Below, one piece after another: positions 16,710 through 40,768 of a stretch of DNA of 64,000 bases (the first letter of the stretch is position 1; each line of letters starts with the position of its first letter). This stretch comes from an uncultured SAR86 cluster bacterium (GTDB taxonomy: Bacteria; Pseudomonadota; Gammaproteobacteria; Magnimaribacterales; D2472), in contig CAXYBK010000003.1 in the NCBI GenBank assembly GCA_964275345.1, forward strand, positions 569,636 through 633,635, given 5' to 3'. The position numbers and the translations under genes were made by a program. The notes beneath the pieces were generated by a model that was given only the letters and a program-made list of their open reading frames with translations, was not told the origin of the DNA and ran no database searches.

Positions 16710-17759
16710 ATGCCTATTTACGATAATATTCTAAAAAAACTTACTTCTAAAGATATCACTTTAGATAGATCTCAGCTTGATTTTATTGATATTTTTAATA
16801 AGCACAAGCCAAAGAAGTCCAGACTATTTTTTACTTTATCAAAAAATATCATTAAAGGTTTCTACTTATGGGGTGAAGTTGGAAGAGGGAAGACCCTTTT
16901 ACTTAATTCTATTTATGATGAATTAGAATTTAAAAAAGCAAAATTTCATTACATTGATTTTATGCAATCAATTCATAAAAATTTAAAAGAACTTTCAGGC
17001 AAAAAAAATCCACTAGATTTAATTGCTGACTCTTTAGCCGCTGATTATGAAGTAGTTTTTATAGATGAGTTTCAAGTAGAAGATGTTGCAGACGCAATGC
17101 TTATTACGAATTTATTCAAAAAACTCTTTGAAAAAGATATTTATTTTCTTTTATCTTCAAATGCTCATCCAACAAACTTATATCTTGATGGTCTGCAAAG
17201 ACAAAAATTTATTTCAGCTATAAATTTAATGGAGAAGCATCTTAATATTCATAAACTTGATGGTGATAAGGATTATAGAATTTCACTAATCTCACAATTT
17301 GAAAAAAATAATGATTCAGGCCTGTTTGATAAAAAGAAAATAAAAGATTTCATATCATCAACATTTGATTGCGATGAGTTTTCAGATCAAATTGAGATAA
17401 ATAATAGAAATTTTAGTTGTAACGGTTTTAATAATTCATTTTTATGGATTAGCTTTAATAAATTTTTCCACGAACCATCAAGTGCAAAGGATTATATTGA
17501 AATATGCAAAAAATATGACTGGATTCTAATTAATGAATTTAGCGCATGTGGTGATGATGAGGCTGATAGAGTCAGAAGGTTTATTAGCTTTATAGACGTT
17601 GCATATAAAGAAAATACTAAGGTAAAGTTTTTTAATGAAGGCATAAATCCAGAAAATTTATATATTGGAAAGAAATTTCAATACCTCTGGGAGAGATCAC
17701 AAAGCAGAATCAATGAAATGAAAAGTAAAAAATATTTACTAAATTCAGGGAAAAATTAA
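16710..17759 (+). CDS. zapE: Cell division-associated AFG1-like ATPase ZapE
   Basis: 349 aa. Walker A GEVGRGKT, Walker B VVFIDEFQVEDVADA. Conserved position upstream of rplM. Confidence 0.85.
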   Translation: MPIYDNILKKLTSKDITLDRSQLDFIDIFNKHKPKKSRLFFTLSKNIIKGFYLWGEVGRGKTLLLNSIYDELEFKKAKFHYIDFMQSIHKNLKELSGKKNPLDLIADSLAADYEVVFIDEFQVEDVADAMLITNLFKKLFEKDIYFLLSSNAHPTNLYLDGLQRQKFISAINLMEKHLNIHKLDGDKDYRISLISQFEKNNDSGLFDKKKIKDFISSTFDCDEFSDQIEINNRNFSCNGFNNSFLWISFNKFFHEPSSAKDYIEICKKYDWILINEFSACGDDEADRVRRFISFIDVAYKENTKVKFFNEGINPENLYIGKKFQYLWERSQSRINEMKSKKYLLNSGKN

Positions 17760-21326: not shown

Positions 21327-21938
21327 ATGATTTTATATTCAGACAGAGACGACCATTACAGCCAAAGAGTAAGAATAGTTCTTGCTGAAAAAGATATAAC
21401 TTGCGAAATCAGAGAATCCTCTTTGGAGGAAACATCTGAAGAAATTCTATCAATCAACCCATATCACAAACTTCCTATATTAGTTGATAGAGAGCTTGGG
21501 CTTTATGATACCGGTGTAATGATGGAGTATTTAGATGAAAGGTTTCCTCATCCACCTTTGCTTCCTGTATACCCAGTTGCTCGAGCGAACTGCAGAACAT
21601 TGATGTTAAGAATTGATAAAGAGTGGTGTCCGATGGTAGATACATTAATTGAAAAGAAATTATCTGATAAAGAGTTAATTAAAGTCAGAGAAGAATTACT
21701 TCATGAGATAGCTTCCATAGCATCAACTTTTAAAGAATTTCAATTTTTTATGAGTGATGAGTTTTCTCTAGTTGATTGTTGTTTTGGGCCTATTCTTTGG
21801 AGACTTCCATCTATTGGAATTAATCTTCCTGTAAATAGACATCTAAAACCCTTACTCGATTATCAAAAAAGAATTTTTGAAAGACCTGGATTTCTTGACA
21901 GCTTATCTCCATTAGAAAGAGATCTTAGGGAAGAGTAA
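21327..21938 (+). CDS. sspA: Stringent starvation protein A (GST-like)
   Basis: 203 aa GST fold (..YSQRVRIVLAEK.., ..INPYHKLPILVDRE..LYDTGVMMEYLDERFPHPPLLP..). Conserved position after rplM-rpsI-petABC. Confidence 0.9.
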   Translation: MILYSDRDDHYSQRVRIVLAEKDITCEIRESSLEETSEEILSINPYHKLPILVDRELGLYDTGVMMEYLDERFPHPPLLPVYPVARANCRTLMLRIDKEWCPMVDTLIEKKLSDKELIKVREELLHEIASIASTFKEFQFFMSDEFSLVDCCFGPILWRLPSIGINLPVNRHLKPLLDYQKRIFERPGFLDSLSPLERDLREE

Positions 21939-23124
21939 AAATACCCTCAGAATTTATTCTCTTAAGAGGCAGTTTTCTTGAAATACATTTGCCTTCCCTT
22001 AAATGTAAAATTCCACTTCTTCCATTTACAACGGCTTCTTTAATTCCACTTTGTGACAGGTAAGAAGTTAAAAGTAAATCATAAAGATTATCAAAAATTA
22101 ACCTATCTTTTATAGAAGCATTTTTTTTAAATTGATCTAAAAAAATATCATCACCAAAATGATTTGGAGCAGGCATTATTAATGATTCAAAATCAACAAT
22201 CCCATTTATGTTATTAACGCTCTCAATCAAGTTGCTTGAAGCATAAGAATTAATACCAATTGAGTAGTTATACCTAAATGCTGGCACAAGCCCCTTTGCA
22301 TTTTTATAAGACATTAAAAAATAAATATTTTTAATATCCTCACGAACTCTTGGAATATTATTAATTTTTACATTTGGAAGTAAAGCATTAATTCTTTTAT
22401 ATCTTTCCGAGCTGTCTGATACCCCTAAGACATTAGAAGCAAATTGCTCATATCCTTCATCAGAAAATAATACAGATCTAAGATTGCTAAAATTACTGTT
22501 TAATCTTCTTTCCTGGCCTTTAAAAGTATTTTCGTAAATAACAAGAGTTTCCTTTCCATCAAATACACTGTCACTAAAAATAACTGCCTCAATAGAACTT
22601 AATTGATCATCCTGAAATGAATTACAGAATCCTGGCAATGCTTCATTTAAAATATTTTTGCTTATAATATTTTTAGCACTATTTACAAAAATTAAATTAA
22701 ATTCTGTATCTATATTGATAGATGCTTGTATTAAAATCTTTTTATACTTCTCATCTATCTTAATTGTAAGATTTGTAGCCTGCCTGCCTTGCAATTTTTT
22801 AGTGTTTCTTAATATGCCTTCAATAATGTTCTTTCCATAGGGAGATAAATTATCTGAGACATCTTCTATTACCTTATAAGTCTTATTAACATCAAGCGAT
22901 TCATATTTCAGCAATTCAAGAATTAAGTCTCTATCAATTCTAGATTTTTCTTTATTAAGCTCATTTTCAAAAAAGAGATCATCCGCAGCAAGAAGCTCAG
23001 TAAAATCATTTTGTTTTTGATCTTCATTTAATTTAAAACCATTATTTGAGGATGTAGCGCAACTATTTAGTAGCATTATTGCTAAAATAAAAGAGAATTT
23101 TGTATGCAGTGAGTTTTTTTTCAA
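21925..23124 (-). CDS. lpoA: LpoA-like lipoprotein (penicillin-binding protein 1A activator family)
   Basis: 399 aa, TTG start, lipoprotein-like signal (..ILAIMLLNSC). C-terminal blocks ..PRVREDIKNIYFLMSYKNAKGLVPAFRYNY..INSYASS.. and ..VNGRSGILHLREGKCISRKL.. resemble the LpoA C-domain. Divergent from rsmI, as lpoA (yraM) is in E. coli. Confidence 0.65.
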   Translation of the reverse strand: MKKNSLHTKFSFILAIMLLNSCATSSNNGFKLNEDQKQNDFTELLAADDLFFENELNKEKSRIDRDLILELLKYESLDVNKTYKVIEDVSDNLSPYGKNIIEGILRNTKKLQGRQATNLTIKIDEKYKKILIQASINIDTEFNLIFVNSAKNIISKNILNEALPGFCNSFQDDQLSSIEAVIFSDSVFDGKETLVIYENTFKGQERRLNSNFSNLRSVLFSDEGYEQFASNVLGVSDSSERYKRINALLPNVKINNIPRVREDIKNIYFLMSYKNAKGLVPAFRYNYSIGINSYASSNLIESVNNINGIVDFESLIMPAPNHFGDDIFLDQFKKNASIKDRLIFDNLYDLLLTSYLSQSGIKEAVVNGRSGILHLREGKCISRKLPLKRINSEGIFTLP

Positions 23125-23964: not shown

Positions 23965-24300
23965 AGCCGAGTTGGTCAGATGATCGCTAAAATTTATTTT
24001 AGAGGAAAGTCCGGACTTCATAGAGCAGGGCGCCAGGTAACTCCTGGGAGGCGTAAGCCTACGGATAGTGCAGCAGAAAATATACCGCCAATTTTATTGG
24101 TAAGGGTGAAAAGGTGCGGTAAGAGCGCACCGCTTAAATGGTAACATTTGAGGCATTGTAAACCCCAGCCCGAAGCAAGACCAAATAGAAATCCTTAGGC
24201 TGCTCGTTTAGGATTTGGGTAGGTTGCTAGAGCATTGTGGTGACACATTGCCAAGATAGATGATCATCTTTTACAGAATCCGGCTTACAGACCAACTCAT
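23965..24300 (+). ncRNA. rnpB: RNase P RNA, bacterial type A
   Basis: Universal CR elements read directly: GAGGAAAGTCCGGAC.. near the 5' end, ..GGTAAGGGTGAAAAGGTGCGGTAAGAGCGCACCG.., ..ACAGAATCCGGCTTACAG.. near the 3' end. The P1 helix forms between GAGTTGGTC (23969..23977) and GACCAACTC (24290..24298). TATAAT at about 23956..23961 is positioned as a -10. Sits between rsmI and mraZ, as in Pseudomonas. Confidence 0.93.
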
Positions 24301-24319
24301 TTTTTTAAATATATTAAAA

Positions 24320-24359
24320 AAAGTGTGTGAAAGTGTGTAAAAAATGTTATAAAGTGTGT
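24320..24359 (+). promoter_or_regulatory. Putative MraZ operator: phased AAAGTGT direct repeats in the mraZ (dcw) promoter region
   Basis: AAAGTGTgtg AAAGTGTgta AAAaaTGTtat AAAGTGTgtt. Three exact copies and one degenerate copy start at about 24320, 24330, 24341 and 24351 (10-11 bp phasing), 30-65 bp upstream of the mraZ ATG. Confidence 0.55.
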
Positions 24360-24386: not shown

Positions 24387-24854
24387 ATGTTTGGATACAA
24401 TACGATATCTATAGATCAAAAGAACAGGTTCTCAATACCTGCTAAATATCGTGCTGATTTCTTAGAAACTAACGAATCAGAAGTTATAGTCACTAAAGAT
24501 CCTCAATATCCCTCTTTAAAATTATACAAAGGTTCTGAGTGGCAGATAATTTCAACTAAACTTCAATCATTACAGGGATTAGATCCGATTGTAAGGAATT
24601 TACAATGGACTATATTAGGTAATGCAAGTGTTACAGATTTTGATCCAAGTGGCAGAATGCTAATTCTTCTTCCCGAAGACCTCAGAAATTATGCCCAGTT
24701 AGATAATAATAATAAGATTTCATTTATCGGTATGGGTAATAAATTTGAAATTTGGAATACAGAGAATTGGAATTTACGACAAACTGGAGGAACTTTAGCT
24801 ACAGAAATTTTAGATGTTGTTCTTCCTACAAGCATAAAAGAAATGTCTTTTTAA
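24387..24854 (+). CDS. mraZ: Transcriptional regulator MraZ
   Basis: 155 aa. Two SpoVT/AbrB-like halves (..DQKNRFSIPAKYR.. and ..DPSGRMLILLPEDLRNYA..). First gene of the dcw cluster. Confidence 0.92.
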   Translation: MFGYNTISIDQKNRFSIPAKYRADFLETNESEVIVTKDPQYPSLKLYKGSEWQIISTKLQSLQGLDPIVRNLQWTILGNASVTDFDPSGRMLILLPEDLRNYAQLDNNNKISFIGMGNKFEIWNTENWNLRQTGGTLATEILDVVLPTSIKEMSF

Positions 24855-24867
24855 AAAGGGGATAGGT

Positions 24868-25992
24868 ATGAACTGGGAAGTAGTAGATCAACATAATCAA
24901 CAAGCCAGAATAAAAGTAATTGGAGTTGGAGGAGCTGGCGGAAACGCAGTCATCCATATGATTAACCATGATATTCAAGGTGTTGATTTTATATGTGCTA
25001 ATACCGATACACAGGCTCTTGCAAGAGCAGATGGAGCTATATCACTAAAATTAGGTAGTAACCTTACAAAAGGCTTAGGTGCTGGAGCAAATCCTGAAGT
25101 TGGCCGCCAAGCTGCAGAGGGAGACAGAGAAGCAATTCAGGAACTCCTAGGTGATGCTGATATGATTTTTATAACGGCTGGCATGGGAGGAGGTACTGGA
25201 ACTGGTGCTGCTCCTGTAGTCGCGTCAATTGCAAAAGAAATGGGTGCATTAACTGTAGCCGTTGTAACAAAACCTTTTAAGTTTGAAGGTAAAAGAAGAA
25301 TGAGTTCCGCTGAACAGGGCTTAGCTGCATTAGTTGAAGAAGTTGACAGCCTCATAACAATCCCAAATCAAAGACTTATTGAAGTCCTTGGAGGCAATAC
25401 AACAATGACTGATGCATTTGCTAAAGCAGATGACGTTTTAAAGGGAGCAGTTCAAGGAATATCAGACATCATCATGAAAGATGGTCTCATAAATGTTGAT
25501 TTCAATGATGTAAGAACAGTTATGTCTGAAAAAGGAATAGCAATGATGGGCACTGGAAGATCTAGTGGTAAAGATAGAGCTTCTGAAGCAGCATCTCAAG
25601 CTGTAGGAAGTGAATTACTTGAAGATATCGATTTAAAAGATGCTAGAGGAGTTCTAGTTAATATCACTGGGAAAGAGCCAACTTTAAATGATTACGAAGA
25701 AGTAAGTAATATTGTTGAAGAGTTTACAGCTGAAGATGCTTATGTAATTTACGGAACAGTAATTGATAAGGATATTGATGATGACTTGTTGGTAACTATT
25801 GTTGCCACTGGTGTTAATCAAAAAGCTCCAACATTAGCAGTGGATAATAAAAGAAGCGCTTCTATAAAACTAAATCCAGTAGGATTAGGAAGAGAAGTTC
25901 AAGTTAATACAAGTCAAGAAGTTGGCACATCGTCTGCAGAGGCATTAGATTTCCTTGATGTGCCGACTTTTATGCGAAAACAAGTAGACTAA
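24868..25992 (+). CDS. ftsZ: Cell division GTPase FtsZ (in a non-canonical position within the dcw cluster)
   Basis: 374 aa. IKVIGVGGAGGNAV, tubulin signature GGGTGTGAAPV, T7 loop NVDFNDV, conserved C-terminal peptide DFLDVPTFMRKQVD. Good SD (AGGGGA) 13 nt after the mraZ stop. rsmH ATG lies 1 nt after its stop. Confidence 0.97.
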   Translation: MNWEVVDQHNQQARIKVIGVGGAGGNAVIHMINHDIQGVDFICANTDTQALARADGAISLKLGSNLTKGLGAGANPEVGRQAAEGDREAIQELLGDADMIFITAGMGGGTGTGAAPVVASIAKEMGALTVAVVTKPFKFEGKRRMSSAEQGLAALVEEVDSLITIPNQRLIEVLGGNTTMTDAFAKADDVLKGAVQGISDIIMKDGLINVDFNDVRTVMSEKGIAMMGTGRSSGKDRASEAASQAVGSELLEDIDLKDARGVLVNITGKEPTLNDYEEVSNIVEEFTAEDAYVIYGTVIDKDIDDDLLVTIVATGVNQKAPTLAVDNKRSASIKLNPVGLGREVQVNTSQEVGTSSAEALDFLDVPTFMRKQVD

Positions 25993-25993
25993 A

Positions 25994-26893
25994 ATGCTCC
26001 ATTTTCCAGTATTGCTGGAAGAATCTATTGGTTTTCTAGTTGATAATAAAAGTGGCTCATTCCTAGATTGCACATTTGGGAGAGGTGGCCATTCTAAATC
26101 TATTTTAAACACAATCACTGATCAAGGTGAACTCACGGCTTTTGACAAAGATCCCGATGCTGTTGAATATGCAGATAATTCAATTAAAGACCCTAGATTT
26201 AAAATTATTCATAAATCATTTAATGAAATAGATTCAATCTTTAAAGCTAGATCTCTTGATGGGATATTGTTTGATCTAGGAACTTGCTCAACTCATTTCG
26301 ACGATAAGTCCAGAGGGTTTAGTTTTCAAGATACCGGTCCATTGGATATGAGATTTAATTTTAATACCGGTTATCCTGTTTCTGAATGGATAAATACAAC
26401 AAATGAAAAAGATTTAGTGGATGTTTTATTTAAATATGGTCAAGAAAAAAATGCTCGATCTATAGCAAAAGCAATTTGTATATCAAGAAAAGAATCATCC
26501 ATAGAGACAACGTCTCAACTAGCAGACATTATCGTATCTGTTTCTTCAAAGAAATATACAAAGATTCATCCGGCTACAAAGTCCTTTCAAGCATTTAGAA
26601 TTTTTATAAATAATGAGTTAGAGGAATTAGAGCAAGCTCTTGAAAAATCTAAGCAACTAATCAAGATAGGTGGAAAAATTGTTGTTATTTCATTTCACTC
26701 TCTTGAAGATTCAATTGTTAAAAATTCTTTTAAAACTAAGATCCAAGCATTTCCAAAAGAAATACCTATTAATCCAATTATTACGAAAGAATTTGACTGC
26801 ATTGCAAGAAAAATAAGACCATCATCAGATGAGATTAGTAAAAATAAGCGCTCTAGAAGTGCAATTATGAGGGTTTTTAAGAAACTTCCATGA
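25994..26893 (+). CDS. rsmH: 16S rRNA (cytosine1402-N4)-methyltransferase RsmH (MraW)
   Basis: 299 aa. HFPVLLEE.., DCTFGRGGHS, ..ILFDLG.., ..VISFHSLEDSIVK... Confidence 0.95.
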   Translation: MLHFPVLLEESIGFLVDNKSGSFLDCTFGRGGHSKSILNTITDQGELTAFDKDPDAVEYADNSIKDPRFKIIHKSFNEIDSIFKARSLDGILFDLGTCSTHFDDKSRGFSFQDTGPLDMRFNFNTGYPVSEWINTTNEKDLVDVLFKYGQEKNARSIAKAICISRKESSIETTSQLADIIVSVSSKKYTKIHPATKSFQAFRIFINNELEELEQALEKSKQLIKIGGKIVVISFHSLEDSIVKNSFKTKIQAFPKEIPINPIITKEFDCIARKIRPSSDEISKNKRSRSAIMRVFKKLP

Positions 26894-27159
26894 AATTGAG
26901 CAATATTCTAATTTTTTCTATTCAAATATCCTTAATATTGTTTTTATCATTTGAGCAAATAAAAGTTAGGTGGGAGATAAGTATTTTATACGGCAACCAA
27001 GACAAAATTAATCTTGAGTATCAAAATCTTAAAGAAGAAGAATATAAACTTAAAACAGAAGTTTACTTTTTAAATTCTCCAGCAAGAGTTGAAAAATATG
27101 CCAAAGAAAAACTTTTTATGCAAAAAGTAAAACCTAAAATTATAAAGATAGAAAAATGA
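26890..27159 (+). CDS. ftsL: Cell division protein FtsL
   Basis: 89 aa. Single TM plus a coiled-coil-like stretch. Conserved slot between rsmH and ftsI, with both junctions overlapping. Confidence 0.75.
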   Translation: MKLSNILIFSIQISLILFLSFEQIKVRWEISILYGNQDKINLEYQNLKEEEYKLKTEVYFLNSPARVEKYAKEKLFMQKVKPKIIKIEK

Positions 27160-28784
27160 AGAAATTAAACTATTTTAATTGGAGATTTTTTCTTATTATG
27201 ATTTTTTTAATTGCTTCTGTAATAGCGATTTTTATTAGAGTTATTTACCTTCAAATTGATAAAGAAAACTTTTTAAAAAATTGGGGACAAAATCAACATA
27301 TTGCATACAGAGAAGTTCCTTCAATAAGAGGAACTATTTACGATCGAAATAATATACCTCTTGCCATTTCATTAACTCATTATGATTTATATGCTTTAAG
27401 AAATTTTAGTAAAGATGATTATGTAAAGTTACAAAATATAATTAACATCGATACTTCTTTTGAAAAGATAGCTGCAAAGAATAAGAAAATCTTGATTCAA
27501 AAAAGTCTATCTCCCGATGTAATCAATTTAATTAAAAACTCTTCCTTACATCATTATGAGATAGAAATAAGATTTTCAAGACATTATCCTCTTGCAGATC
27601 AAATTGCACCTTTAGTAGGCTTTTCAGGAAAGGATAATTATGGTCTTGAGGGCATCGAAAAGAGTTATAACTCATTACTATCAGGACAAGATGGTAGAGA
27701 AAAGTACTATAAAAATAGAAAAGGCGATATTATTTCAAAAGCTATTAGTACTAAAATTCAAGAACCAGGCCATGATCTTCATCTTACTATTGATAGCAAT
27801 ATCCAATTTTTTACTTATAAAAAGTTAGCAGAAGCAATCGAGGAAACTAAAGCTAAAAGTGGGACCGCAATTGTTTTGGATAATACAAGTGGTGAAATTT
27901 TAGCAATGGCTAGCTATCCTTCATACAATCCTAATAACCCCAACAGAAAGCCTCAAAAAAATGGCGCACTTCTTGATAAATATGAACCAGGATCTGTTTT
28001 AAAACCAATTGCTATGGCTAAGGCCCTTGATATGGAGCTAATTAATATAGATGACCCTTTTGATACCTCACCTGGATATATTTCTTTAAATAATTATTCT
28101 ATTAGTGATTATAAAAATCATGGAGTTTTGAAAGCATATGAAATTATTACTTATTCAAGTCAGGTTGGAGCATCTAAGGTCGCCTTAATGCTTGGTGCTG
28201 ATAATATTATTTCAACATACAAAAAATTTGGTTTCAGTAAACCAATTAATGTTAATTTTCCATCTGCAACATTTGGTCAAATTAATAATAGAGAAAATAT
28301 GTCAGATATAGAAATTGCTAATCTTGGGTTTGGCTATGGTCTTGATGCTAGTCCATTTCAAATTGCATCGGCTTTTTCAGTCTTTGCAAATGAAGGTGTT
28401 TATAAAGAATTTACATTAATCATGAATGATGAATATAAATATGAAGAAAGAGTTATCTCCAAAGAAACAGCAAATAAAATATTATTTTCTTTAAAAGATG
28501 TTGTTGAGAACGGATCAGGCCGAAAAGCAAAAGTACCAGGATTTAATATAGGTGGTAAGACAGGAACATCTCATAAGAGTGAAAAGGGAGGCGGATATGC
28601 AAAAAGTATCTATACAGCATCATTTGCTGGCATAGCGCCACTAGATAGTAAAGATCTTACTATTTTTGTTTCTATTTATCAGCCTGGCTTGAATGCATAC
28701 ACAGGTGGGGACATAGCAGCACCTTTGTTCTCAGAAATTGCTTCTGATACCCTTAATTATTTAGGATATTTTGAGAGTGAATGA
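27156..28784 (+). CDS. ftsI: Peptidoglycan D,D-transpeptidase FtsI (PBP3)
   Basis: 542 aa. N-terminal TM. Penicillin-binding motifs S-V-L-K (PGSVLKP), SSQ (YSSQVG), KTGT (GGKTGTS). Confidence 0.93.
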   Translation: MKKLNYFNWRFFLIMIFLIASVIAIFIRVIYLQIDKENFLKNWGQNQHIAYREVPSIRGTIYDRNNIPLAISLTHYDLYALRNFSKDDYVKLQNIINIDTSFEKIAAKNKKILIQKSLSPDVINLIKNSSLHHYEIEIRFSRHYPLADQIAPLVGFSGKDNYGLEGIEKSYNSLLSGQDGREKYYKNRKGDIISKAISTKIQEPGHDLHLTIDSNIQFFTYKKLAEAIEETKAKSGTAIVLDNTSGEILAMASYPSYNPNNPNRKPQKNGALLDKYEPGSVLKPIAMAKALDMELINIDDPFDTSPGYISLNNYSISDYKNHGVLKAYEIITYSSQVGASKVALMLGADNIISTYKKFGFSKPINVNFPSATFGQINNRENMSDIEIANLGFGYGLDASPFQIASAFSVFANEGVYKEFTLIMNDEYKYEERVISKETANKILFSLKDVVENGSGRKAKVPGFNIGGKTGTSHKSEKGGGYAKSIYTASFAGIAPLDSKDLTIFVSIYQPGLNAYTGGDIAAPLFSEIASDTLNYLGYFESE

Positions 28785-30267
28785 ATTAGAGAAAATATTA
28801 GGTGTAACTTTTCCAAAAAATACAGTTATTATCAATGCAACCAATTCAACAAAAAAAGTTATAAAGAATTCAATTTTTTTTGGTCTGCAAGGTACTAAAG
28901 TTCATGGTAGTAAATATATAGAAGAGGCCATGAGTCTTGGGGCCTCAATCTCTATTCATAATGATCCAGAGTATAAATCTAATAAAGATAATGTTTTTTA
29001 TATAAAAGATTTAGTAAAAAGAATAGATATGTTCACTAATAACGAATTTGAACAAAAAACTAGAATTTATTACTTCTTAGAGCATTTCTATGAAATGCAA
29101 AATACAAATAATCATAGTATTAGAGCTTTCACTGGAACAAATGGTAAAACTTCTTCAGCCTATTTATGTCATCAACTCTTATTAAGCAGAGGAATAGATT
29201 CCATTTATATTGGAACTATAGGTGTTCAGTTAAATAATAAAGAGATAAATAATTCAATTTTTAAAAAAACTACACCTGATATTTTTGAGTTTTTTGAAAT
29301 ATTAAATACGCTTAAAGTAAGAAATAATATAAATATATGTATTGAAATTTCATCTCATGCTCTTGATCAGGGAAGGCTAAATGATTTAAGTTTTCTTACC
29401 TCATGTGTATTAAATATAGGCAAGGATCATTTGGATTATCATAAAAATATTGAAGATTATACGAAAACTAAATTATCTATTTTTAATTCAATTTCTCTTC
29501 TAAAACTTATTAATGCAGATTTAAACCCAATAGTTATGCATAAAGAAAAAGACTTAACATCGATAAGTAATTCAAATGAATTAGCGAATGTATATTATAA
29601 AATAATTGAATCTGGGGTTGATGGAACTTTATTCGAAGTTAAAACAAGTTCTGAAATATCCTCATCACATGATTCTGTTAGAAGAACGTATAGGTTTTGT
29701 TGCAAATTATTTTTGGATTTTAATATCAATAATCTTATTTTTGCTATTGAATCTGCTGGATATGAAACATTTTCAGAAGAGAATATTAATAATTTAAATT
29801 TTTTAACTCTTCCAAAAGGTAGAACAGAACTTATACCTAACATATCTGCAAATGTAATTATTGATTATGCGCATAATGTAGAGGGTTTTAAGTTTTTTTT
29901 AACATCTATAAAAAATTACTTTACAAGTATAGTAATAGTCTTTGGTTGCGGAGGAGATAGGGATAAACAGAAGAGACCAGAGATGCTTAATATTGCTATC
30001 AAAAATGCTAGAGAAGTGATATTTACATCAGATAATTCAAGAAGTGAAGATTTTAAAGCAATTTCTGCAGATTCATTAAAAGGAAATGACGAAAAAAAAG
30101 TTAAAGTTATAGAAGATAGAAAAGAAGCAATAATACATGGGAGTAGTTTAATCCGTGATGATGATTGTTTGGTTATCCTTGGAAAAGGCCATGAGCAAAC
30201 GCAAGAAATTAACGGTAAAACATTTCATTTCAGTGATCACGAGGTAGTTAATGAAATTTATAAGTAA
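28771..30267 (+). CDS. murE: UDP-MurNAc-L-Ala-D-Glu:meso-DAP ligase MurE
   Basis: 498 aa. P-loop TGTNGKTS, ..DYAHN.., ..FGCGGDRD..KRP.. . TTG/GTG start overlaps the ftsI 3' end. Confidence 0.92.
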   Translation: MRVNELEKILGVTFPKNTVIINATNSTKKVIKNSIFFGLQGTKVHGSKYIEEAMSLGASISIHNDPEYKSNKDNVFYIKDLVKRIDMFTNNEFEQKTRIYYFLEHFYEMQNTNNHSIRAFTGTNGKTSSAYLCHQLLLSRGIDSIYIGTIGVQLNNKEINNSIFKKTTPDIFEFFEILNTLKVRNNINICIEISSHALDQGRLNDLSFLTSCVLNIGKDHLDYHKNIEDYTKTKLSIFNSISLLKLINADLNPIVMHKEKDLTSISNSNELANVYYKIIESGVDGTLFEVKTSSEISSSHDSVRRTYRFCCKLFLDFNINNLIFAIESAGYETFSEENINNLNFLTLPKGRTELIPNISANVIIDYAHNVEGFKFFLTSIKNYFTSIVIVFGCGGDRDKQKRPEMLNIAIKNAREVIFTSDNSRSEDFKAISADSLKGNDEKKVKVIEDRKEAIIHGSSLIRDDDCLVILGKGHEQTQEINGKTFHFSDHEVVNEIYK

Positions 30268-31609
30268 TTCTAATGACTTATCAAAATTTCTTGAAAAGTC
30301 TATAAAAAAGAATATAAAAATAAAATCAATTTCTACTGATACACGGACTTTAAAAAAAGATTCTTTATTTGTAGCTATAAGAGGCAACATCTTTGATGGA
30401 AATGACTATGTTGAAGACGCTCTTAAGAAAGGATCATGCCTTGTAATAACTGACAACAAAAAATTTAAAGACTCAAAGAATAAAAAAGTTATTTACGTAA
30501 ATAGTTCACTTCTAGCTTTAAAAAAAATAACAAAAAATATTATTAAGCACTATGAAGGTAATATTATTGGAATTACTGGAAGCAATGGAAAGACGACTAC
30601 TACAAAAATAATTGCTAACTCACTAAAGAGCTGTTCAAGCACTCTAAAGAATTTTAATAATGAGATTGGAATGCCATTAAGCATATTAAATGCTAATCCT
30701 AAATCAAAAAATCTTGTTATTGAAATGGGCGCAGCAAAGCCAAAAGACATTCATTATTTAAGCTCAATTCTAAACCCTAATGTTGGACTTATTACTAATA
30801 TTGGTAACTCCCATTTAGAAAATTTAATAAATACTCAAGGAGTGTTAAATGTTAAATCAGAATTAGTACCAAATATTAAACATAACGGTTTTCTAGTAGT
30901 GCCAAACGAGAATCTTAAACATTTAAAATTTTGGCGTAACATAAGAAGTGACATTCATATTAGAACATTTGGACTTAAATCAAATGCAGATTTTTACCCA
31001 AGAAATATTGTCATGGATTCAAATAAAACAGAATTTAAAATTTGTTCTAAAAAATACAATTTAACAATTCCAATTTCAACAACTTTACTAGGTGATCATA
31101 ATATAAAAAATATTTTAGCTGCCTTTGCTGTTAGCTATTGTATTAATAATACTGAAGAAGCTTTTCTCAATGGAATTAAGAAATTATTAGTTAACGACAT
31201 GAGACAAAAAAAATCTAAATGGATAAGAGGTTCTCTCCTAATTGATGATACTTATAATGCAAATCCTGAATCTGTTAAAAAATCTATAGATCTAACTAAA
31301 AACTTCAACAGTCAAAGAACTGTTTTTATCTTAGGTGATATGAAAGAACTTGGCAGATATAGAAAGAAGCTTCATAAGGAAGTTGGTGCTTATGCAAAGA
31401 AACAAAAAGTAGATTTATTTATAGGTTTTGGTGATTTAACGCGCTTTTCTGTAGATGCTTTTGGTAAAAATGGCTTTTTCTTTAGTGATAAAGAACAAAT
31501 GCACGAATTTTTAGTTAATAATATTGAAAGAAAAGATTTAGTAATTTTAAAAGGCTCAAGGGGAATGCAAATGGAACAATTCATTAATACTCAAAGAGGA
31601 GATTCCTAG
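30251..31609 (+). CDS. murF: UDP-MurNAc-tripeptide:D-Ala-D-Ala ligase MurF
   Basis: 452 aa. ..ISTDTRTLKKDSLFVAIRG..FDGNDY.., P-loop TGSNGKTTT, ..DDTYNANPES... Confidence 0.93.
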   Translation: MKFISNSNDLSKFLEKSIKKNIKIKSISTDTRTLKKDSLFVAIRGNIFDGNDYVEDALKKGSCLVITDNKKFKDSKNKKVIYVNSSLLALKKITKNIIKHYEGNIIGITGSNGKTTTTKIIANSLKSCSSTLKNFNNEIGMPLSILNANPKSKNLVIEMGAAKPKDIHYLSSILNPNVGLITNIGNSHLENLINTQGVLNVKSELVPNIKHNGFLVVPNENLKHLKFWRNIRSDIHIRTFGLKSNADFYPRNIVMDSNKTEFKICSKKYNLTIPISTTLLGDHNIKNILAAFAVSYCINNTEEAFLNGIKKLLVNDMRQKKSKWIRGSLLIDDTYNANPESVKKSIDLTKNFNSQRTVFILGDMKELGRYRKKLHKEVGAYAKKQKVDLFIGFGDLTRFSVDAFGKNGFFFSDKEQMHEFLVNNIERKDLVILKGSRGMQMEQFINTQRGDS

Positions 31610-32695
31610 ATGTTTGAGTATTTAGGAACAGTTTTAGTAGATTTTGATCCAGGCTTTGATATTTTAAGATATCTTACTGTTAGAACAATTGGCGGCACCG
31701 TTACCGCACTTCTTATATCTATTTTATTGGGTCCTTTAGTTATAAATCTTTTAAAGAGATTTCAGTTTGAACAACATGTCAGAGTTGATGGACCTAAAAG
31801 TCACTATAAAAAAACTGGTACTCCCACCATGGGGGGATTGCTTATTCTAATGTCACTCGTAATATCAACATTACTTTGGGCTGATTTAAGTAATCGTTAC
31901 ATATGGGTAGTTCTTTTTGTGACTATCTCATTTGGTGTTGTTGGATTTTTAGATGACTTCATTAAAATTAAATCAAAGAGCTCTGATGGATTATCAAGTA
32001 AACAAAAAATCATCCTTCAAAGTTTATTTGCATTTATTGCAACTACGTTTCTGTATTTCTCTGCTGAGACGTCACCTGAAACTGCTTTTATTGTTCCTTT
32101 TTATAAAGATCTCTTGATAAGCATGAGTCCATTTTTATTTATATTTTTAGGTTCTTTTGTTGTTGTTGGATCATCCAACGCAGTTAATCTAACAGATGGC
32201 TTAGATGGGTTGGCAATATTACCGACAATACTTATAGCAGGGGCTTTAGGGTTAATTGCTTATGGGATGGGAAATATCTTAATCGCAGATTATCTTTACT
32301 TGCCTCATTTAGAAATATCTGGGGAATTAGTTGTGTTCTGTGGTGCCTTGATAGGCTCTGGTATAGGATTTTTATGGTACAACACTTATCCAGCGCAGAT
32401 TTTTATGGGAGATGTAGGCTCGCTTACTTTAGGAGCCATTCTTGGAACAATTGCAGTAATATTAAGACATGAATTAGTCTTTGCAATAATGGCTGGAGTC
32501 TTTGTTATGGAAACCTTAAGTGTTGCCATTCAAGTTATATCTTTTAAATTAAGAGGAAAAAGAGTTTTTTTAATGGCGCCAATTCACCACCACTTTGAAT
32601 TGAAAGGCTGGGAAGAGCCTAAAATAATTGTTAGGTTCTGGATCATAACTATTATTTTAATTTTAGTTGCTTTAGCAACATTAAAAATTAGGTAA
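31610..32695 (+). CDS. mraY: Phospho-N-acetylmuramoyl-pentapeptide transferase MraY
   Basis: 361 aa polytopic protein. ..[10 protein letters not shown].., ..[13 protein letters not shown].., ..MGDVGSL.., ..[12 protein letters not shown]... Confidence 0.96.
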
Positions 32696-32707
32696 ATACC
32701 AAGCTTT

Positions 32708-33757
32708 GTGAAGTCTTTAATATATGGCTACGGGATTACTGGAAAATCAATAGAAAGATATCTCATAAAAAATAATATTGATTATAAAATATATGATGAT
32801 AATAAGGATCTTTATACATCAGATCAATTTACCAATAATCTCAAAGACAATTGGGATGTCATATACTGCAGCCCTGGTATTAATAAAGCAGATTTTACAA
32901 AACTAAAATTCATTGCTAAAGAAGATGTTTTAACCGATTTAGATGTATTTATGGCGGAAGATACTTCTATAAAAATTGGCATAACTGGCACTAATAGAAA
33001 AAGTACAACTTGTTTTCATCTTCATCAACTTTTAAGTAAAGATTATGCTGTAAATTTAATAGGTAATATTGGAGAGCCTGTTCTAGATTACTTAAACTCA
33101 GGGGCCGAGTTTTCAATAATTGAATTTTCAAGTCAGCAGTTAGATAAATTAAAAGAAAACAAACTAGATTATGGCGTCTTATTAAATATCGCTCCAGATC
33201 ATATTGACTACCACGGAAGCTTTGAAGAATATAAATCTTCTAAGAATCGCATCCTTGAAGCCAAAGAAAAATCTTACGAAAATAATCCATATAAGTTATT
33301 TCATTGGATTACAGGAAAGAAAGCAGAAGCAATTAATTTCAATAATCTACCTTTTAGATTTGAAATCATTACAAAATCAATTATTAATGATTCCAAATCA
33401 ACTAATATGCATTCATTAGATTACGCTATTAAACATGCAAATCAGCATTTTAATGATGATAAATACGATCTAATTATTTGTGGAAATCCAGCAAAAGAAG
33501 GCTTCAGAACGTTTAATCCTAAAGGTCCAGAGCATACTCTTATCTTTGGATTACACGCCAATGAAATCAACAAATGTATTAATCATCCAGAAAAAAAACT
33601 CTATAAAAATTTATCTGATGTCTTAATTGAAATCTCAAATAATAAAAATCAGAATATTTTATTTTCACCTGGTTATCCAAGTGGAGATGATTTTAAAAAT
33701 TTTGAAGAAAGAGGAGAGTATTTTAATAAATTGGTTCATGAAATTTTACTTAAATGA
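32708..33757 (+). CDS. murD: UDP-MurNAc-L-Ala:D-Glu ligase MurD (unusually short)
   Basis: 349 aa, GTG start. GYGITGKS, P-loop ITGTNRKSTT, NIAPDHIDYH, INDSKSTN, LFSPGYPSGDDFKNFEERG. Correct slot between mraY and ftsW. Confidence 0.85.
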   Translation: MKSLIYGYGITGKSIERYLIKNNIDYKIYDDNKDLYTSDQFTNNLKDNWDVIYCSPGINKADFTKLKFIAKEDVLTDLDVFMAEDTSIKIGITGTNRKSTTCFHLHQLLSKDYAVNLIGNIGEPVLDYLNSGAEFSIIEFSSQQLDKLKENKLDYGVLLNIAPDHIDYHGSFEEYKSSKNRILEAKEKSYENNPYKLFHWITGKKAEAINFNNLPFRFEIITKSIINDSKSTNMHSLDYAIKHANQHFNDDKYDLIICGNPAKEGFRTFNPKGPEHTLIFGLHANEINKCINHPEKKLYKNLSDVLIEISNNKNQNILFSPGYPSGDDFKNFEERGEYFNKLVHEILLK

Positions 33758-34854
33758 TTTATAGAAATAATATTTTCCTTTCAGTTTCTTTTATTGGATT
33801 AATTAGTCTTGGGCTAGTAATGGTCACCTCTTCAAGTATTTATATTGCAGATAATTTAACTGGAAACCCTTTCCATTTTGCAACCAGACAAGCTTTTTTC
33901 ATTGGAGTTGGTATTTTAGTATTTACTATTTTTATATCTATACCATCTTCATTTTTAGAAAAAATAGATTGGCTTTTTTTACTCATTAGCATTGTCCTAC
34001 TTATTGCTCTGTTTGTTCCTGGAATTGGAACTGAGGTTAATGGAAGTATTAGATGGATTAGACTTGGCCCTATTAATGTTCAGCCTGGTGAAGTTTGTAA
34101 ATTTAGTATGATTTTATATACCTCTGGATATTGTGTTAGAAGAATGGGTGAGATAAGTACTCTTAGAGGTTTTCTTAAACCTTTATTGTTGCTAGGATTA
34201 GTCTCTTTTCTAATATTATCTCAACCAGATCTTGGAACTACAGCAATAATATGTGCAGTAGTAGTAGCTATTTTATTCTTTGCTGGAATATCTTTTTTTC
34301 AATTTGTATTGCTTCTTCTTTTAATGGGAACTTTAGGATTTATTGCAATCTATTTCACACCATTTAGATTAACGAGAGTTATGTCATTTATGGATCCATT
34401 TTTAGTACAACAAGGTGCAGGATGGCAACTAAGCAATTCATTAATTGGAATAGGTCAGGCAAATTGGATAGGATTAGGGCTTGGTAATAGTTTTCAAAAA
34501 AACCTATTTCTTCCAGAAGCACATACAGATTTTATTTTTGCTATTCTTGTTGAGGAGCTAGGAATATTTGGAGTTATTTTTTTAATTTCACTTTACTCAT
34601 TTATGATTTTTGCAATTTTTTCAATAGCTATGGAGTCTTTAGCACTAAAGAGGTTTTTTCAGGGTTTTGTTTCTTTTGGCATTGGTTTTTTAATATCAAT
34701 ACAAGCGCTTTTTAATTTAGCAGTTAATATAGGCCTTCTTCCTACAAAAGGTTTAACATTACCCTTTATAAGCTATGGGGGAACTAGCATCATAATAATG
34801 ATGGCTTTTATTGGTATAGTTTTAAGAATCAATAATGAAAATAGATTTTATTAA
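33754..34854 (+). CDS. ftsW: Peptidoglycan glycosyltransferase / lipid II flippase-family protein FtsW (SEDS)
   Basis: 366 aa, about 10 TM segments. SEDS blocks ..RWIRLGPINVQPGEVCKF.., ..QPDLGT.., ..LPEAHTDFIFA.., ..GLTLPFISYGGTS... Confidence 0.93.
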   Translation: MIYRNNIFLSVSFIGLISLGLVMVTSSSIYIADNLTGNPFHFATRQAFFIGVGILVFTIFISIPSSFLEKIDWLFLLISIVLLIALFVPGIGTEVNGSIRWIRLGPINVQPGEVCKFSMILYTSGYCVRRMGEISTLRGFLKPLLLLGLVSFLILSQPDLGTTAIICAVVVAILFFAGISFFQFVLLLLLMGTLGFIAIYFTPFRLTRVMSFMDPFLVQQGAGWQLSNSLIGIGQANWIGLGLGNSFQKNLFLPEAHTDFIFAILVEELGIFGVIFLISLYSFMIFAIFSIAMESLALKRFFQGFVSFGIGFLISIQALFNLAVNIGLLPTKGLTLPFISYGGTSIIIMMAFIGIVLRINNENRFY

Positions 34855-34857
34855 TAT

Positions 34858-35905
34858 ATGAATATTTTAATTGCCGCAGCAAAGACAGGCGGGCATATAT
34901 ATCCAGCAGTATCTGTTGGAAGTGAATTCATTCACAACAATCATAATGTAATCTTTTTAGGGTCAAATAATACTTTAGAAAAAAATGCCCTTAAAAACCA
35001 ACCTGATATTCAATATGAATCAATTCCAATGAAAGGCTTTAGAGGTAATGGATTGGTAAGCAAGTTATTAGTTTTATTCAACCTACCTCTAAATATTTAT
35101 AGCTTAATAAAGCTAATCAAAAAAAATAATGTAGATATTGTGATTGTTTTTGGTGGATTTATTACAATTCCAGCATCTTTTGCTGCATTAATTCTTAGAA
35201 AACCAATATACGTCCATGAGCAAAATACAATTTTAGGTTCAGCTAATAAAATATCCTCATTTTTTTCAAAGAAAAACTTTCTTGGCATGCCTCTTCATAA
35301 TAATAATCTTAAAAAATCAGAGATTGTTGGTAATCCAATTCGAAACTCATTTATACCTTTAATGCAAAAAACATATGATGAAAATGTTCATATATATATA
35401 ACTGGGGGGAGTCAGGGAGCAAAATATCTAAACGATAATCTTCCTGAAATATTAAAAGATATTAAGCACCCTGTATTCATTAAACATCAATGCGGTTCAG
35501 GAAAAAAAGAAGAAGTAGTTAAGTTATATGAGGGTTTTGAGAATGTTGAAGTAGAAGAGTTTTTTGATAACCCTAATTTATTAATTGATTGGTCTGATTT
35601 TGTAATATCTAGATCAGGTGCATTAAGCTTGTCAGAAACAATGTCAATGAATAAAGGGTCACTTATGATACCTCTTGCCCAACGCCATAGATAATCATCA
35701 GTTTTTCAATGCAAAATATATCGAAGAAAAAGGAATGGGAATAATTCATGAACAAAAAAATGGTATTGAGAATTTAAAGGCAGTAATTAATCTTATCTTG
35801 AATGAAAAAAAATATTTAGTTTGGCAAAAAATAAATTTTGAAATTAATCACACTGATGCAGCAAAAAATATTGTTTCATCAATCCTAAATCAGAGTACTG
35901 AATGA
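34858..35905 (+). pseudogene. murG: murG (lipid II-forming GlcNAc transferase), interrupted by a 1-nt frameshift as assembled
   Basis: Two abutting ORFs, 34858..35694 (278 aa; AAKTGGHIYPA.., ..ITGGSQGA..) and 35675..35905 (76 aa; PNAIDNHQFFNAKYIEEKG..). Together they make one normal MurG. The frame switches within ATACCTCTTGCCCAAC (about 35668..35683). Confidence 0.85.
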
Positions 35906-37293
35906 ATCCCTTAAAAAAAATTAAACATATTCACTTTGTCGGTATTGGTGGAGCAGGAATGATTGGCATAGCATATTTACTTTTAAGAAAAGGCTACAAA
36001 GTTAGCGGATCAGATATAAATAAATCAAAATCTTTAAGTAATTTAAAGAAAATAGGAGCAAAGGTTTTTTATACGCATAATGAAGGAAATGTTGGCAAAG
36101 CAGACTTGCTGGTAATGTCTTCAGCAATAAAACCCTCTAATCCAGAATATAGAATTGCAAAAAGAAAAGGTATTACAATTATTCCAAGAGCGCAGATGTT
36201 AGGAAGTTTAATGCGAGGCTATGAAAGTATAGCTGTTGCTGGAAGTCATGGTAAGACAACTACAACGAGCATGATTGCAAATATATTTAGTGAAGCTCTT
36301 TTGAGCCCAACATATATCGTGGGTGGAAAAGTTTTAGGTATTGGAAAAAATTCAGAACTTGGAAGCGGCAATCATCTAATTGCTGAGGCTGATGAGAGCG
36401 ATGGCTCTTTTCTTCACTTACAACCTGATGTTGGAGTTTTTACAAATATTGATAATGATCACTTAAGTTATTATGACAATGATATAGAGAAATTATTAAA
36501 TTCATTTCAAATGTTTGCAGAAAATATACCTTTTTATGGCGCACTTATAATTAATAATGATGATAAAAATGTAAGAGAAGTAGCAAAAAATATTTCAAGA
36601 AGACAAATCTCTTTTGGATTTTCTACAAAAAGTGATTATCAAATTACCAATGCCATTTACAAGAATAATTATCAAAGTTTTAGTCTAGTAAATAATGTTC
36701 TGCAAAAGAAATATTTATTTAGTTTACCAATGCCTGGAAGACATAACTTATACAATGCTGCGGCTGCCATAGCTGCAAGTCTTGAAGAGGGCATACCAAT
36801 AAAATCAATTCAAAAAGGGCTTAAGAACTTTCAAGGTGTTTCAAGAAGATTTGAAAAGCATGAATTAATAATAAAGAAAAAAAATCTAATCCTAATAGAT
36901 GATTACGGACATCATCCTGAAGAAATAAGATCAACAATTAATGCAATCCATCAAGCATTTCCTAAGAAAAAGATTTGTATGATTTTCCAACCCCACAGAT
37001 ACACTAGAACAGCTCAACTTTATGATGATTTCAAGGATGTTTTATCTATGCCAGATTCACTTTTATTATTTGATATTTATCCGGCTAGCGAAGCTCCTAT
37101 AAAAGGCATCTCTTCAAAAAAGCTTTTAGAAAGCATAAAGCAAGATGGCAAGCTTAATGCGAAACTCACGTCTAATAAATCCATACTAGATGACATTAAA
37201 AATTCATACATGGACTTTGATATTTTAGTAACGCAAGGGGCAGGAAGTATTTCATCAGTCTGCGAAGCTATAAAAAAGAAATGGCAGAAATAA
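35902..37293 (+). CDS. murC: UDP-N-acetylmuramate:L-alanine ligase MurC
   Basis: 463 aa. HFVGIGGAGM, P-loop AGSHGKTTTT, ..DDYGHHPEE.., ..FQPHRYTRT... Confidence 0.95.
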   Translation: MNPLKKIKHIHFVGIGGAGMIGIAYLLLRKGYKVSGSDINKSKSLSNLKKIGAKVFYTHNEGNVGKADLLVMSSAIKPSNPEYRIAKRKGITIIPRAQMLGSLMRGYESIAVAGSHGKTTTTSMIANIFSEALLSPTYIVGGKVLGIGKNSELGSGNHLIAEADESDGSFLHLQPDVGVFTNIDNDHLSYYDNDIEKLLNSFQMFAENIPFYGALIINNDDKNVREVAKNISRRQISFGFSTKSDYQITNAIYKNNYQSFSLVNNVLQKKYLFSLPMPGRHNLYNAAAAIAASLEEGIPIKSIQKGLKNFQGVSRRFEKHELIIKKKNLILIDDYGHHPEEIRSTINAIHQAFPKKKICMIFQPHRYTRTAQLYDDFKDVLSMPDSLLLFDIYPASEAPIKGISSKKLLESIKQDGKLNAKLTSNKSILDDIKNSYMDFDILVTQGAGSISSVCEAIKKKWQK

Positions 37294-38207
37294 AAAATAT
37301 TATAGTGCTCTATGGTGGCGCATCCTCTGAGCGAGATATTTCCCTTGAAAGTGGAAAAGGTATTTATGAAGCCTTAGAACAGCTTGGATATCTCGTAACA
37401 CTAAAGGATTATAATGATTTAGGAGAATTAGAAAACTTAAAAGAATATGACCTAGTTTTTATAGCCTTACATGGATTTGAAGGAGAATCAGGTATCTTAC
37501 AAAAAAATTTAGATAACCTCGGTATTCTTTATACGGGTTCAAAATATCTATCCTGTAAAAATACATGGAATAAAACTAGATTTAAAGATATTTTAGAATC
37601 TGCACTTATACCGACACCAAGAGGTTTTTCAGTAGAGAGAATTCATTCAGACATGCAATCCCCATTCAATAACTTTCATAAAAAATATAGTGAAGATATT
37701 CAAAATTTATTTCTAAAACCTGAAGAGGATGGTTCTAGTGTAGATATTTTTGAGGTCAATTGTGAAGGCGACCTTGAGCATGCAATAAGAGATGCACAAA
37801 ATCCAAATAGAGCATTTATATTTGAAGAATCAATTAAATTTAAAGAATTTACAGTTTCTATTCTTGATAACAAATGCTTGCCAGTAATTGAAATCAAGAC
37901 CACTAATAGTTTTTATGACTATGATGCAAAATATATTTCAGAGACTACTCAATTAATAGAGGCTGATCTAGATGAAAAAAATAAAAATAAGATTCATGAT
38001 ATGGCTTTAAAAGCCTTTAAAGAACTAGGTTGCTTAAAATGGGGAAGAGTGGATATCCTTCAAGATAAGAATGAACAATTCTATATCTTAGAAATTAATA
38101 CAGTGCCTGGAATGACTTCACATAGTTGCCTTCCAAAGGCAGCGGAGATATTAGGGGTTTCATATAAAGAGCTTGTTCAAAGAATCATTCAAGATGCTCA
38201 CTTATAA
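37281..38207 (+). CDS. ddl: D-alanine:D-alanine ligase
   Basis: 308 aa. ..VLYGGASSERDISL.SG.., ..ALHG..GE.G.LQ.., ATP-grasp C-terminus ..EINTVPGMTSHS..P. Confidence 0.93.
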   Translation: MAEIKNIIVLYGGASSERDISLESGKGIYEALEQLGYLVTLKDYNDLGELENLKEYDLVFIALHGFEGESGILQKNLDNLGILYTGSKYLSCKNTWNKTRFKDILESALIPTPRGFSVERIHSDMQSPFNNFHKKYSEDIQNLFLKPEEDGSSVDIFEVNCEGDLEHAIRDAQNPNRAFIFEESIKFKEFTVSILDNKCLPVIEIKTTNSFYDYDAKYISETTQLIEADLDEKNKNKIHDMALKAFKELGCLKWGRVDILQDKNEQFYILEINTVPGMTSHSCLPKAAEILGVSYKELVQRIIQDAHL

Positions 38208-40766: not shown

Positions 40767-40768
40767 AA

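Follow-up and report, generated by a model that had tools for sequence, protein, structure and literature searches.

Results

Gene order at the locus

This study concerns a cluster of division and cell wall (dcw) genes of an uncultured SAR86 cluster bacterium (Gammaproteobacteria, Magnimaribacterales; assembly GCA_964275345.1, contig CAXYBK010000003.1) in which the cell division gene ftsZ lies between mraZ and rsmH, near the head of the cluster and far upstream of ftsA. The stretch analysed is 64,000 nucleotides long; it is called the window throughout and all coordinates are its own. The proteobacterial order is mraZ-rsmH-ftsL-ftsI-murE-murF-mraY-murD-ftsW-murG-murC-ddl-ftsQ-ftsA-ftsZ-lpxC (the E. 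coli/Pseudomonas type), a textbook case of extreme gene-order conservation, and the reasons for this order and for a terminal ftsZ with internal promoters are debated. The order in the window is mraZ-ftsZ-rsmH-ftsL-ftsI-murE-murF-mraY-murD-ftsW-murG-murC-ddl-ftsQ-ftsA. These 15 core dcw genes (NCBIfam assignments) are all contiguous and co-directional, and each of the 14 junctions from mraZ to ftsA measures 13 nt or less, most of them being overlaps (range from a 35-nt overlap to a 13-nt gap). The features referred to below are as follows.

23968-24303, + strand: rnpB, the RNase P RNA of bacterial class A, full length (Rfam RF00010, 322.7 bits; gathering score 100)
24320-24359, + strand: predicted MraZ operator array, four boxes spaced at 10 bp (AAAGTGTG, AAAGTGTG, AAAAATGT, which is degenerate, and AAAGTGTG)
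24387-24854, + strand: mraZ, 155 aa, without a Shine-Dalgarno (SD) sequence (TIGR00242, 96.9 bits; matches to MraZ in the PDB)
24855-24867, + strand: mraZ-ftsZ spacer of 13 nt, AAAGGGGATAGGT, containing the ftsZ SD
24868-25992, + strand: ftsZ, full length, 374 aa (TIGR00065, 403.5 bits; motifs in the translation)
25917-25971, + strand: SAR86-specific conserved RNA hairpin in ftsZ codons ~350-368 (synonymous constraint, covariation, fold)
25994-26893, + strand: rsmH (TIGR00006, 312 bits; weak SD, -1.6 kcal/mol)
26890-38820, + strand: ftsL, ftsI, murE, murF, mraY, murD, ftsW, murG, murC, ddl and ftsQ in canonical order (NCBIfam), with junctions from a 35-nt overlap to a 12-nt gap
38810-40039, + strand: ftsA, the last dcw gene (TIGR01174, 470.8 bits)
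40040-40118, + strand: ftsA-rpsF spacer, no convincing terminator (fold z = -0.46)
40119-42626, + strand: rpsF, rpsR, rplI and dnaB in place of ftsZ-lpxC (NCBIfam; S6, 84 bits)

The canonical adjacency of mraZ and rsmH is broken by ftsZ, both in the window and in every SAR86 locus that reaches that far, and in place of the canonical terminal ftsZ (then lpxC) it is rpsF that follows ftsA, after 79 nt. A terminator scan of the + strand detected none after ftsA. Searches with tblastn found no second ftsZ within the 64-kb window, and no lpxC in the window, in the 9-kb ftsZ loci of the survey described below or in the 6 kb downstream of ftsA in three further SAR86 loci (L084-L086). An earlier sequence-only reading of this DNA, made by a model, had described a full-length canonical ftsZ with its C-terminal peptide starting 13 nt after the mraZ stop codon and ending 1 nt before the rsmH ATG, an ftsA ending at 40039 and followed after 79 nt by rpsF with neither ftsZ nor lpxC, and hence an ftsZ that is the second gene of the cluster; the ORF (open reading frame) coordinates, the motifs of the translation, the tblastn searches and the compact co-directional layout agree with this description in every particular.

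Distribution of the mraZ-ftsZ order

One genome per GTDB species was scanned, and the 80 loci obtained (53 from SAR86 and 27 from outgroups) were classified by tblastn with the window's own proteins. The order rsmI-mraZ-ftsZ is present in 53 of 53 SAR86 species-representative loci, with FtsZ proteins 69-97% identical to that of the window; ftsZ is followed by rsmH in all 52 loci that extend far enough, and rsmH-ftsL-ftsI follows wherever the reach of the locus allows. These loci include SAR86B, the single-cell genomes AAA076-P13 and AAA168-P09, many GORG single-cell genomes, metagenome-assembled genomes (MAGs) and the closed chromosome CP097973.1. The gap between mraZ and ftsZ is 8-18 nt across SAR86, except in L049 (an apparent overlap) and L003 (a truncated mraZ), and the spacing between ftsZ and rsmH runs from a 1-nt overlap to 4 nt. 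Among the outgroup loci (FtsZ at most 58% identical) mraZ stands beside ftsZ in none of the 27 and ftsA-ftsZ is found in 24, and lpxC lies downstream in all eight gammaproteobacterial outgroups. At the other end of the cluster, the order ftsA-rpsF-rpsR-rplI-dnaB-alr recurs in three other SAR86 subclades (L084, L085 and L086; FtsA 70-77% identical).

The mraZ-ftsZ order is ancestral to all sampled SAR86 lineages, as is the ftsA-rpsF junction, and it is virtually certain that the arrangement is real and fixed clade-wide in the lineages sampled. Misassembly, a concern of the sequence-only reading, is ruled out because 53 independent assemblies share the order. That reading had also allowed that the order might turn out to be common and documented in the lineage; it is universal in the SAR86 sampled, but no paper documenting it was found. 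More broadly, no paper tying SAR86 to ftsZ position, mraZ or dcw order was found in the searchable literature, which did not include what is reportedly the main survey of dcw evolution, by Megrian et al. in 2022, and neither ftsZ nor dcw nor cell division comes up in an isolate-anchored comparison of SAR86 genomes. Since the genomes are publicly available, anyone who looks can see the SAR86 order, and it is not a categorically new kind of arrangement. What is new here is the SAR86-specific covarying hairpin in the last ~20 codons of ftsZ, just before rsmH, described below.

FtsZ and its relatives

The FtsZ of the window exceeds the TIGR00065 cut-off of 295.2 bits, the match covering residues 8-326 (family PF00091 and PF12327), and its translation contains the GGGTGTG GTP-binding signature (GMGGGTGTGAAP), the T7 loop NVDFNDV and the C-terminal peptide DFLDVPTFMRKQVD; the protein looks catalytically intact. 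The FtsZ proteins closest to it come from marine metagenomes. Over the core (residues 13-315) it is 60-64% identical to FtsZ of Pseudomonadales, BD1-7 and Marinobacterium, ~59% to that of Gallibacterium and 55-59% to the acidobacterial matches. In a neighbour-joining (NJ) tree the SAR86 proteins form one clade, apart from the Acidobacteria group and closest to Pseudomonadales, and the SAR86 C-terminal peptide LDVPTFMRKQVD is nearest to the gammaproteobacterial LDIPAFLRRQAD. Because of these core identities, the NJ clade and the gamma-like C-terminal peptide, ftsZ looks like a native, vertically inherited gene that has been relocated from its place after ftsA.

MraZ and the region upstream of it

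Between rnpB and mraZ there are only 83 nt to hold a promoter and an operator. The predicted MraZ boxes in this interval begin at 24323, 24333, 24344 (the degenerate one) and 24354; the array occurs once in the window, where none is expected by chance (100 shuffles), and three to four AAAGTGTG boxes are kept across SAR86 at about -60, -50, -40 and -30 from the mraZ ATG. The published MraZ operator consensus consists of GTG(G/T) boxes with 6-nt spacers, the Mycoplasma genitalium version being AAAGTGT-N3 repeated four times (PMC12957436), and the SAR86 array fits it, with at least three GTG(G/T) boxes at 6-nt spacing directly upstream of mraZ. The earlier claim that ftsZ sits directly behind a MraZ-controlled promoter is in keeping with this conserved, predicted array.

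The MraZ protein aligns with solved MraZ structures (PDB chains) over residues 3-128 with E-values of 6e-10 to 3e-7, and its orthologues in relatives carry PF02381. Residues K13, R15 and R86 of M. genitalium MraZ contact the boxes (PMC12957436), and K12, R14 and R90 of the window protein align to them. Both the structure-based alignment and the operator support the identification as MraZ and, because the box array and the DNA-contact residues are conserved, the MraZ-operator pair appears intact.

Many SAR86 lineages have a TTGCAA-N17-TATATT arrangement that overlaps boxes 3-4 and ends ~6 nt before the mraZ ATG; it is not kept in the window's own subclade. This hints at an mraZ mRNA that is leaderless or nearly so. 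It was also observed that rnpB and ftsZ are only 564 nt apart on the same strand, with no more than a T-run after rnpB.

Expression of ftsZ

The core of the ftsZ SD, GGGG(A/T), is kept in nearly all SAR86 loci. In the window the pairing of this site with the canonical anti-SD was calculated at -7.8 kcal/mol, the fourth strongest of 59 window genes, against +1.0 kcal/mol for mraZ (no SD) and the weak value listed above for rsmH. As all junctions from mraZ to ftsA are of 13 nt or less, any promoter specific to ftsZ must lie inside mraZ. Across 50 SAR86 mraZ genes no run of conserved synonymous sites that would mark such an embedded promoter was found: third-position entropy over 10 codons falls no lower than 0.80, where the 5th percentile in ftsZ is 0.76, and the residual normalised for amino acids is just -0.07. 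Since mraZ has no conserved synonymous sites, a clade-wide promoter embedded in it is unlikely, and a conserved ftsZ-specific promoter of this kind was rejected as a candidate for want of any synonymous-entropy signal in the 50 species.

We propose that the cluster would be expressed as one transcription unit from a promoter in the 83 nt between rnpB and mraZ, overlapped by the three- to four-box MraZ operator. Because the single unit would be transcribed from that promoter, ftsZ would be promoter-proximal and co-transcribed with the autoregulator mraZ, FtsZ synthesis would be coupled to MraZ feedback and, unlike in E. coli, FtsZ would not depend on promoters in ddl-ftsQ-ftsA. The high demand for FtsZ would then be met translationally, by a strong SD on ftsZ with none on mraZ and a weak one on rsmH, so that one transcript would yield FtsZ in large amounts and MraZ and the downstream proteins in small ones. 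The sequence-only reading had expected an inverted FtsZ:FtsA transcriptional polarity and FtsZ levels set directly by MraZ; both would follow from this scheme, and they gain indirect support from the lack of a synonymous-site signal for a promoter in mraZ and from the conserved strong SD of ftsZ beside an mraZ that has none.

A hairpin in the 3' end of ftsZ

Synonymous sites in ftsZ codons 353-365 are ~5 standard deviations more constrained than those in the rest of the gene, and the G/C-ending codons GGC, TCG, GAG, TTC and GTG are fixed there despite the AT-rich genome. RNAalifold (38 species) gives a consensus stem of 10 bp, pairing 25923-25932 with 25956-25965, with compensatory double changes in three of the ten pairs, among them a C-G to U-A change seen in four species and an A-U to G-C change seen in a single species. 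The stem cells are paired in 97.9% of cases, against 21-46% when the partners are slid, and none of 500 shuffles reaches the observed pairing or covariation. The window's own hairpin folds at -25.2 kcal/mol (z = -3.0) and contains a bulge of invariant sequence, GUCUGCA, and an inner stem (GAGG/CCUY) that is weak; it ends ~21 nt before the ftsZ stop codon. As G-U pairs are tolerated, the hairpin belongs to the sense RNA.

No comparable helix was found in 13 outgroup ftsZ 3' ends. A dispersed repeat or phage-borne element was considered and rejected, as the hairpin occurs once in the window and was not found in viral contigs. Nor is it a known Rfam family: with Rfam 15 only RNase P passes its gathering threshold in the window, and a local E-value search of the hairpin gave two chance-level matches of 17-18 bits against gathering scores of 49-60.

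The hairpin may mark the boundary between ftsZ and rsmH and partition the transcript post-transcriptionally, for example by holding up RNase scanning or processing, so that the ftsZ module and the distal module from rsmH to ftsA would meet different fates. We consider it a boundary element whose origin coincided with, or came after, that of the new ftsZ-rsmH junction. Post-transcriptional partitioning of this kind or a protein-binding site is the most plausible role, and also the least certain part of our account; any specific role for the hairpin is therefore put forward tentatively.

Flanking genes and other observations

The flanks of the cluster show ordinary gammaproteobacterial synteny, with mlaC, murA, a gene for a trypsin-like protease, zapE, rplM-rpsI and petABC upstream, and alr and then pyrG-kdsA-eno-ftsB-ispDF-surE-pcm downstream. 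The presence of kdsA and mlaC in the window suggests that lipopolysaccharide is still made. Two division genes outside the cluster keep their usual gammaproteobacterial neighbourhoods: zapE (AFG1-type ATPase, 16710-17759) adjoins rplM-rpsI, and ftsB (DivIC family, 48560-48862) lies in eno-ftsB-ispDF. For this reason the rearrangement is taken to be specific to ftsZ. Between alr and pyrG there is a gene for an AurF-like di-iron oxygenase (PF11583, 43672-44751), which the window, L085 and L086 carry and L084 lacks, a variable insertion in an otherwise syntenic block.

Within the cluster, murG (34858-35905) is split by a 1-nt frameshift near 35654-35694 into ORFs of 278 and 76 aa, in this window only; in relatives it is intact and encodes ~345 aa. 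The split reflects either an error of sequencing or assembly or a pseudogene specific to the strain. MurD (32708-33757) has 349 aa and scores 181.8 bits against a TIGR01087 cut-off of 211.95; that of L081 has 343 aa, those of the subclades L085 and L086 have 415 aa and that of E. coli has ~440 aa, and some SAR86 lineages appear to carry a shortened MurD. Divergent from rsmI, an ORF of 399 aa on the - strand (21925-23124) has no Pfam or NCBIfam match; its position is conserved in L081 and L082, where it has 374 aa and likewise no Pfam match. It fills the slot beside rsmI that in E. coli belongs to lpoA, and it may encode a divergent LpoA-like lipoprotein.

Among the outgroups, Marinobacterium sp. 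xm-d-530 and its relatives (L056, L057 and L058) have ~960 bp with a single ftsQ-like ORF between ddl and ftsZ (~3040-4000). No match to FtsA was found in these three loci, and the lineage seems to lack an ftsA at the canonical position.

Discussion

Alternative explanations

The best overall explanation of these results is that the native ftsZ was relocated to the head of the cluster, where it would be part of a single MraZ-coupled transcription unit with a strong SD of its own and a hairpin at its boundary with rsmH; we put the probability of this at about 0.62. The chance that the order is instead an artefact of assembly or binning, with a fragment of ftsZ set between mraZ and rsmH by a chimeric join and the cluster cut off after ftsA, is negligible. 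The window does contain one probable sequence error (the frameshift in murG) and some related long-read contigs have many frameshifts (L083), but the same three junctions recur with the same geometry in the 53 assemblies, which come from differing projects and technologies (single-cell, short-read MAGs, a closed chromosome); their FtsZ proteins have diverged down to 69% identity, and the junctions bear conserved functional signals, namely the SD and the hairpin. It is also very improbable that ftsZ is a xenologue, a foreign copy inserted behind mraZ with subsequent loss of the native ftsZ (and lpxC) from behind ftsA. Such a history is hinted at by the raw tblastn results, in which the best segments are 55-58% identical to acidobacterial FtsZ and 53-54% to that of Gammaproteobacteria. 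This difference, however, is due to segment length: comparison over the same core favours Pseudomonadales and Marinobacterium, SAR86 is separate from the Acidobacteria clade in the NJ tree and the C-terminal peptide is gamma-like. Horizontal replacement was accordingly rejected on the core-region identities and the tree.

The alternatives that accept the relocation differ from our explanation in what they make of its regulation. The order might be real but regulatorily neutral, with ftsZ driven by one or more promoters inside mraZ or by read-through from rnpB and its relocation a frozen accident of streamlining or rearrangement, in which case MraZ would not set FtsZ levels. Both this history and its consequence for MraZ we judge unlikely. 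Promoter-like hexamers do occur in mraZ at 24463-24490, 24523-24550 and 24589-24616, rnpB ends a short way upstream on the same strand with only a T-run behind it, and most ftsZ transcription in E. coli comes from gene-internal promoters. On the other hand, promoter-like sites are fewer than in shuffled sequence, the synonymous sites of mraZ do not mark a clade-wide promoter, and the junction geometry, the SD and the hairpin are under purifying selection, because of which we regard ftsZ as functionally integrated at its new place. A different way of obtaining a high ratio of FtsZ to the downstream proteins, and a simple one, would be for the hairpin to act as an intrinsic attenuator or terminator that stops most transcription before rsmH and leaves abundant short mraZ-ftsZ transcripts. 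Its stem is GC-rich and of 10-15 bp, preceded by an A-run and followed by ACUUUU in most lineages. Termination at this point, though, would fall 5-7 codons before the ftsZ stop and produce a non-stop mRNA of an essential protein; the loop (with the bulge and the weak inner stem) is of ~26 nt rather than 3-8 nt, one subclade has a degraded U-tract that reads CCUUC, the codon for F368 has no synonymous constraint and the terminator scan did not flag the hairpin. With neither a short loop nor a conserved U-tract beyond the stop, the terminator is disfavoured and we give it only a small chance.

Several points weigh against the explanation that we prefer, that is, relocation into a single MraZ-coupled unit. 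The SAR86 sample consists of the 53 species recovered by a search limited by its patterns. Co-transcription and control by MraZ are read from spacing and motifs only. The score of MraZ is just under the TIGR00242 cut-off (96.9 against 98.35 bits), and for that reason the protein might be left unnamed by automated annotation. The core promoter could not be placed, as a sigma-70 scan of this AT-rich DNA gave 65 sites against 86 in shuffles; the sigma-70 and terminator consensus scans are uninformative here, yielding no more matches than expected from shuffles. The synonymous-site test would miss a promoter inside mraZ that varies between lineages and is not conserved. As for the hairpin, its position inside the ORF means that a role as terminator or 3' stabiliser would yield a non-stop ftsZ mRNA, and F368, whose codon forms part of the U-tract, is not synonymously constrained. 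With these points taken into account, the single-operon, MraZ-coupled reading of the locus remains, taken by itself, the probable one.

Significance

SAR86 genomes measure 1.05-1.65 Mb (PMC11582366), and a promoter-proximal ftsZ may be a streamlined alternative to dosage control of the E. coli type. A bolder and more doubtful proposal is that SAR86 has rewired the stoichiometry of its divisome, with one MraZ-autoregulated promoter, FtsZ set by promoter-proximal gene position and a strong SD, and a lineage-specific in-ORF hairpin acting as a novel type of insulator for mRNA decay or processing, or as a regulatory site bound by protein. If this were true, the hairpin would uncouple the ftsZ module from 14 downstream genes of low demand, and the locus would be a minimal, regulator-poor answer to the FtsZ-dosage problem in streamlined oligotrophs and a natural counter-example to the view that dcw order is functionally required. 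As an abundant marine group that has fixed another solution for what is apparently its whole history, SAR86 offers a natural experiment on hypotheses of order and dosage. MraZ, the physiological role of which is unclear, may directly gate the supply of FtsZ in SAR86, and the hairpin is a candidate for a new cis-acting RNA element within an essential gene. Growth indices drawn from metatranscriptomes set ftsZ against RNase P RNA across taxa, and the 2026 paper concerned takes the transcript ratios of the two as independent markers of growth and baseline, for SAR86 among others (PMC13349992); in SAR86 ftsZ lies close to rnpB on the same strand and stands in a transcriptional context different from that in other taxa, which is relevant to such ftsZ:RNase P indices.

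Comparison with known systems

The SAR86 cluster has the same 15 genes as the canonical dcw cluster, co-directional and contiguous, with mraZ first behind a MraZ-box operator, the order from rsmH to ftsA unchanged, and rsmI and rnpB upstream as in many Gammaproteobacteria. It differs in that ftsZ is second and not last, splitting the near-universal mraZ-rsmH pair, and in that ftsA is terminal and abuts rpsF, with lpxC unlinked; ddl-ftsQ-ftsA-ftsZ-lpxC is retained in the close outgroups Pseudomonadales and BD1-7. Functionally, the closest analogue is the reduced operon of the Mollicutes (in M. genitalium mraZ-rsmH/mraW-ftsA-like-ftsZ). There too, ftsZ is near a MraZ-controlled promoter and there is no room for promoters internal to ddl, ftsQ or ftsA (PMC8475190), and the Mollicutes operator, four AAAGTGT boxes with a 10-bp period, is nearly identical to the SAR86 boxes (PMC12957436). 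The proximity was reached differently, however: in Mollicutes by deletion of mur and fts genes with the order mraZ-rsmH...ftsZ kept, whereas SAR86 retains the full cluster and ftsZ itself has moved ahead of rsmH.

The dosage of ftsZ in E. coli depends both on promoters inside ddl-ftsQ-ftsA and on the processing of the ftsA-ftsZ mRNA by RNase E. The partitioning of an mRNA by structure is known from the repetitive extragenic palindromic (REP) hairpins between malE and malF and from 5' stem-loops that block RNase E. Unlike such elements the SAR86 hairpin lies in coding sequence rather than between cistrons, carries a 7-nt bulge that is invariant and belongs to no Rfam family, but like them it is a stable, conserved stem-loop placed at the boundary between a gene of high demand, ftsZ, and downstream genes of low demand in the same operon.

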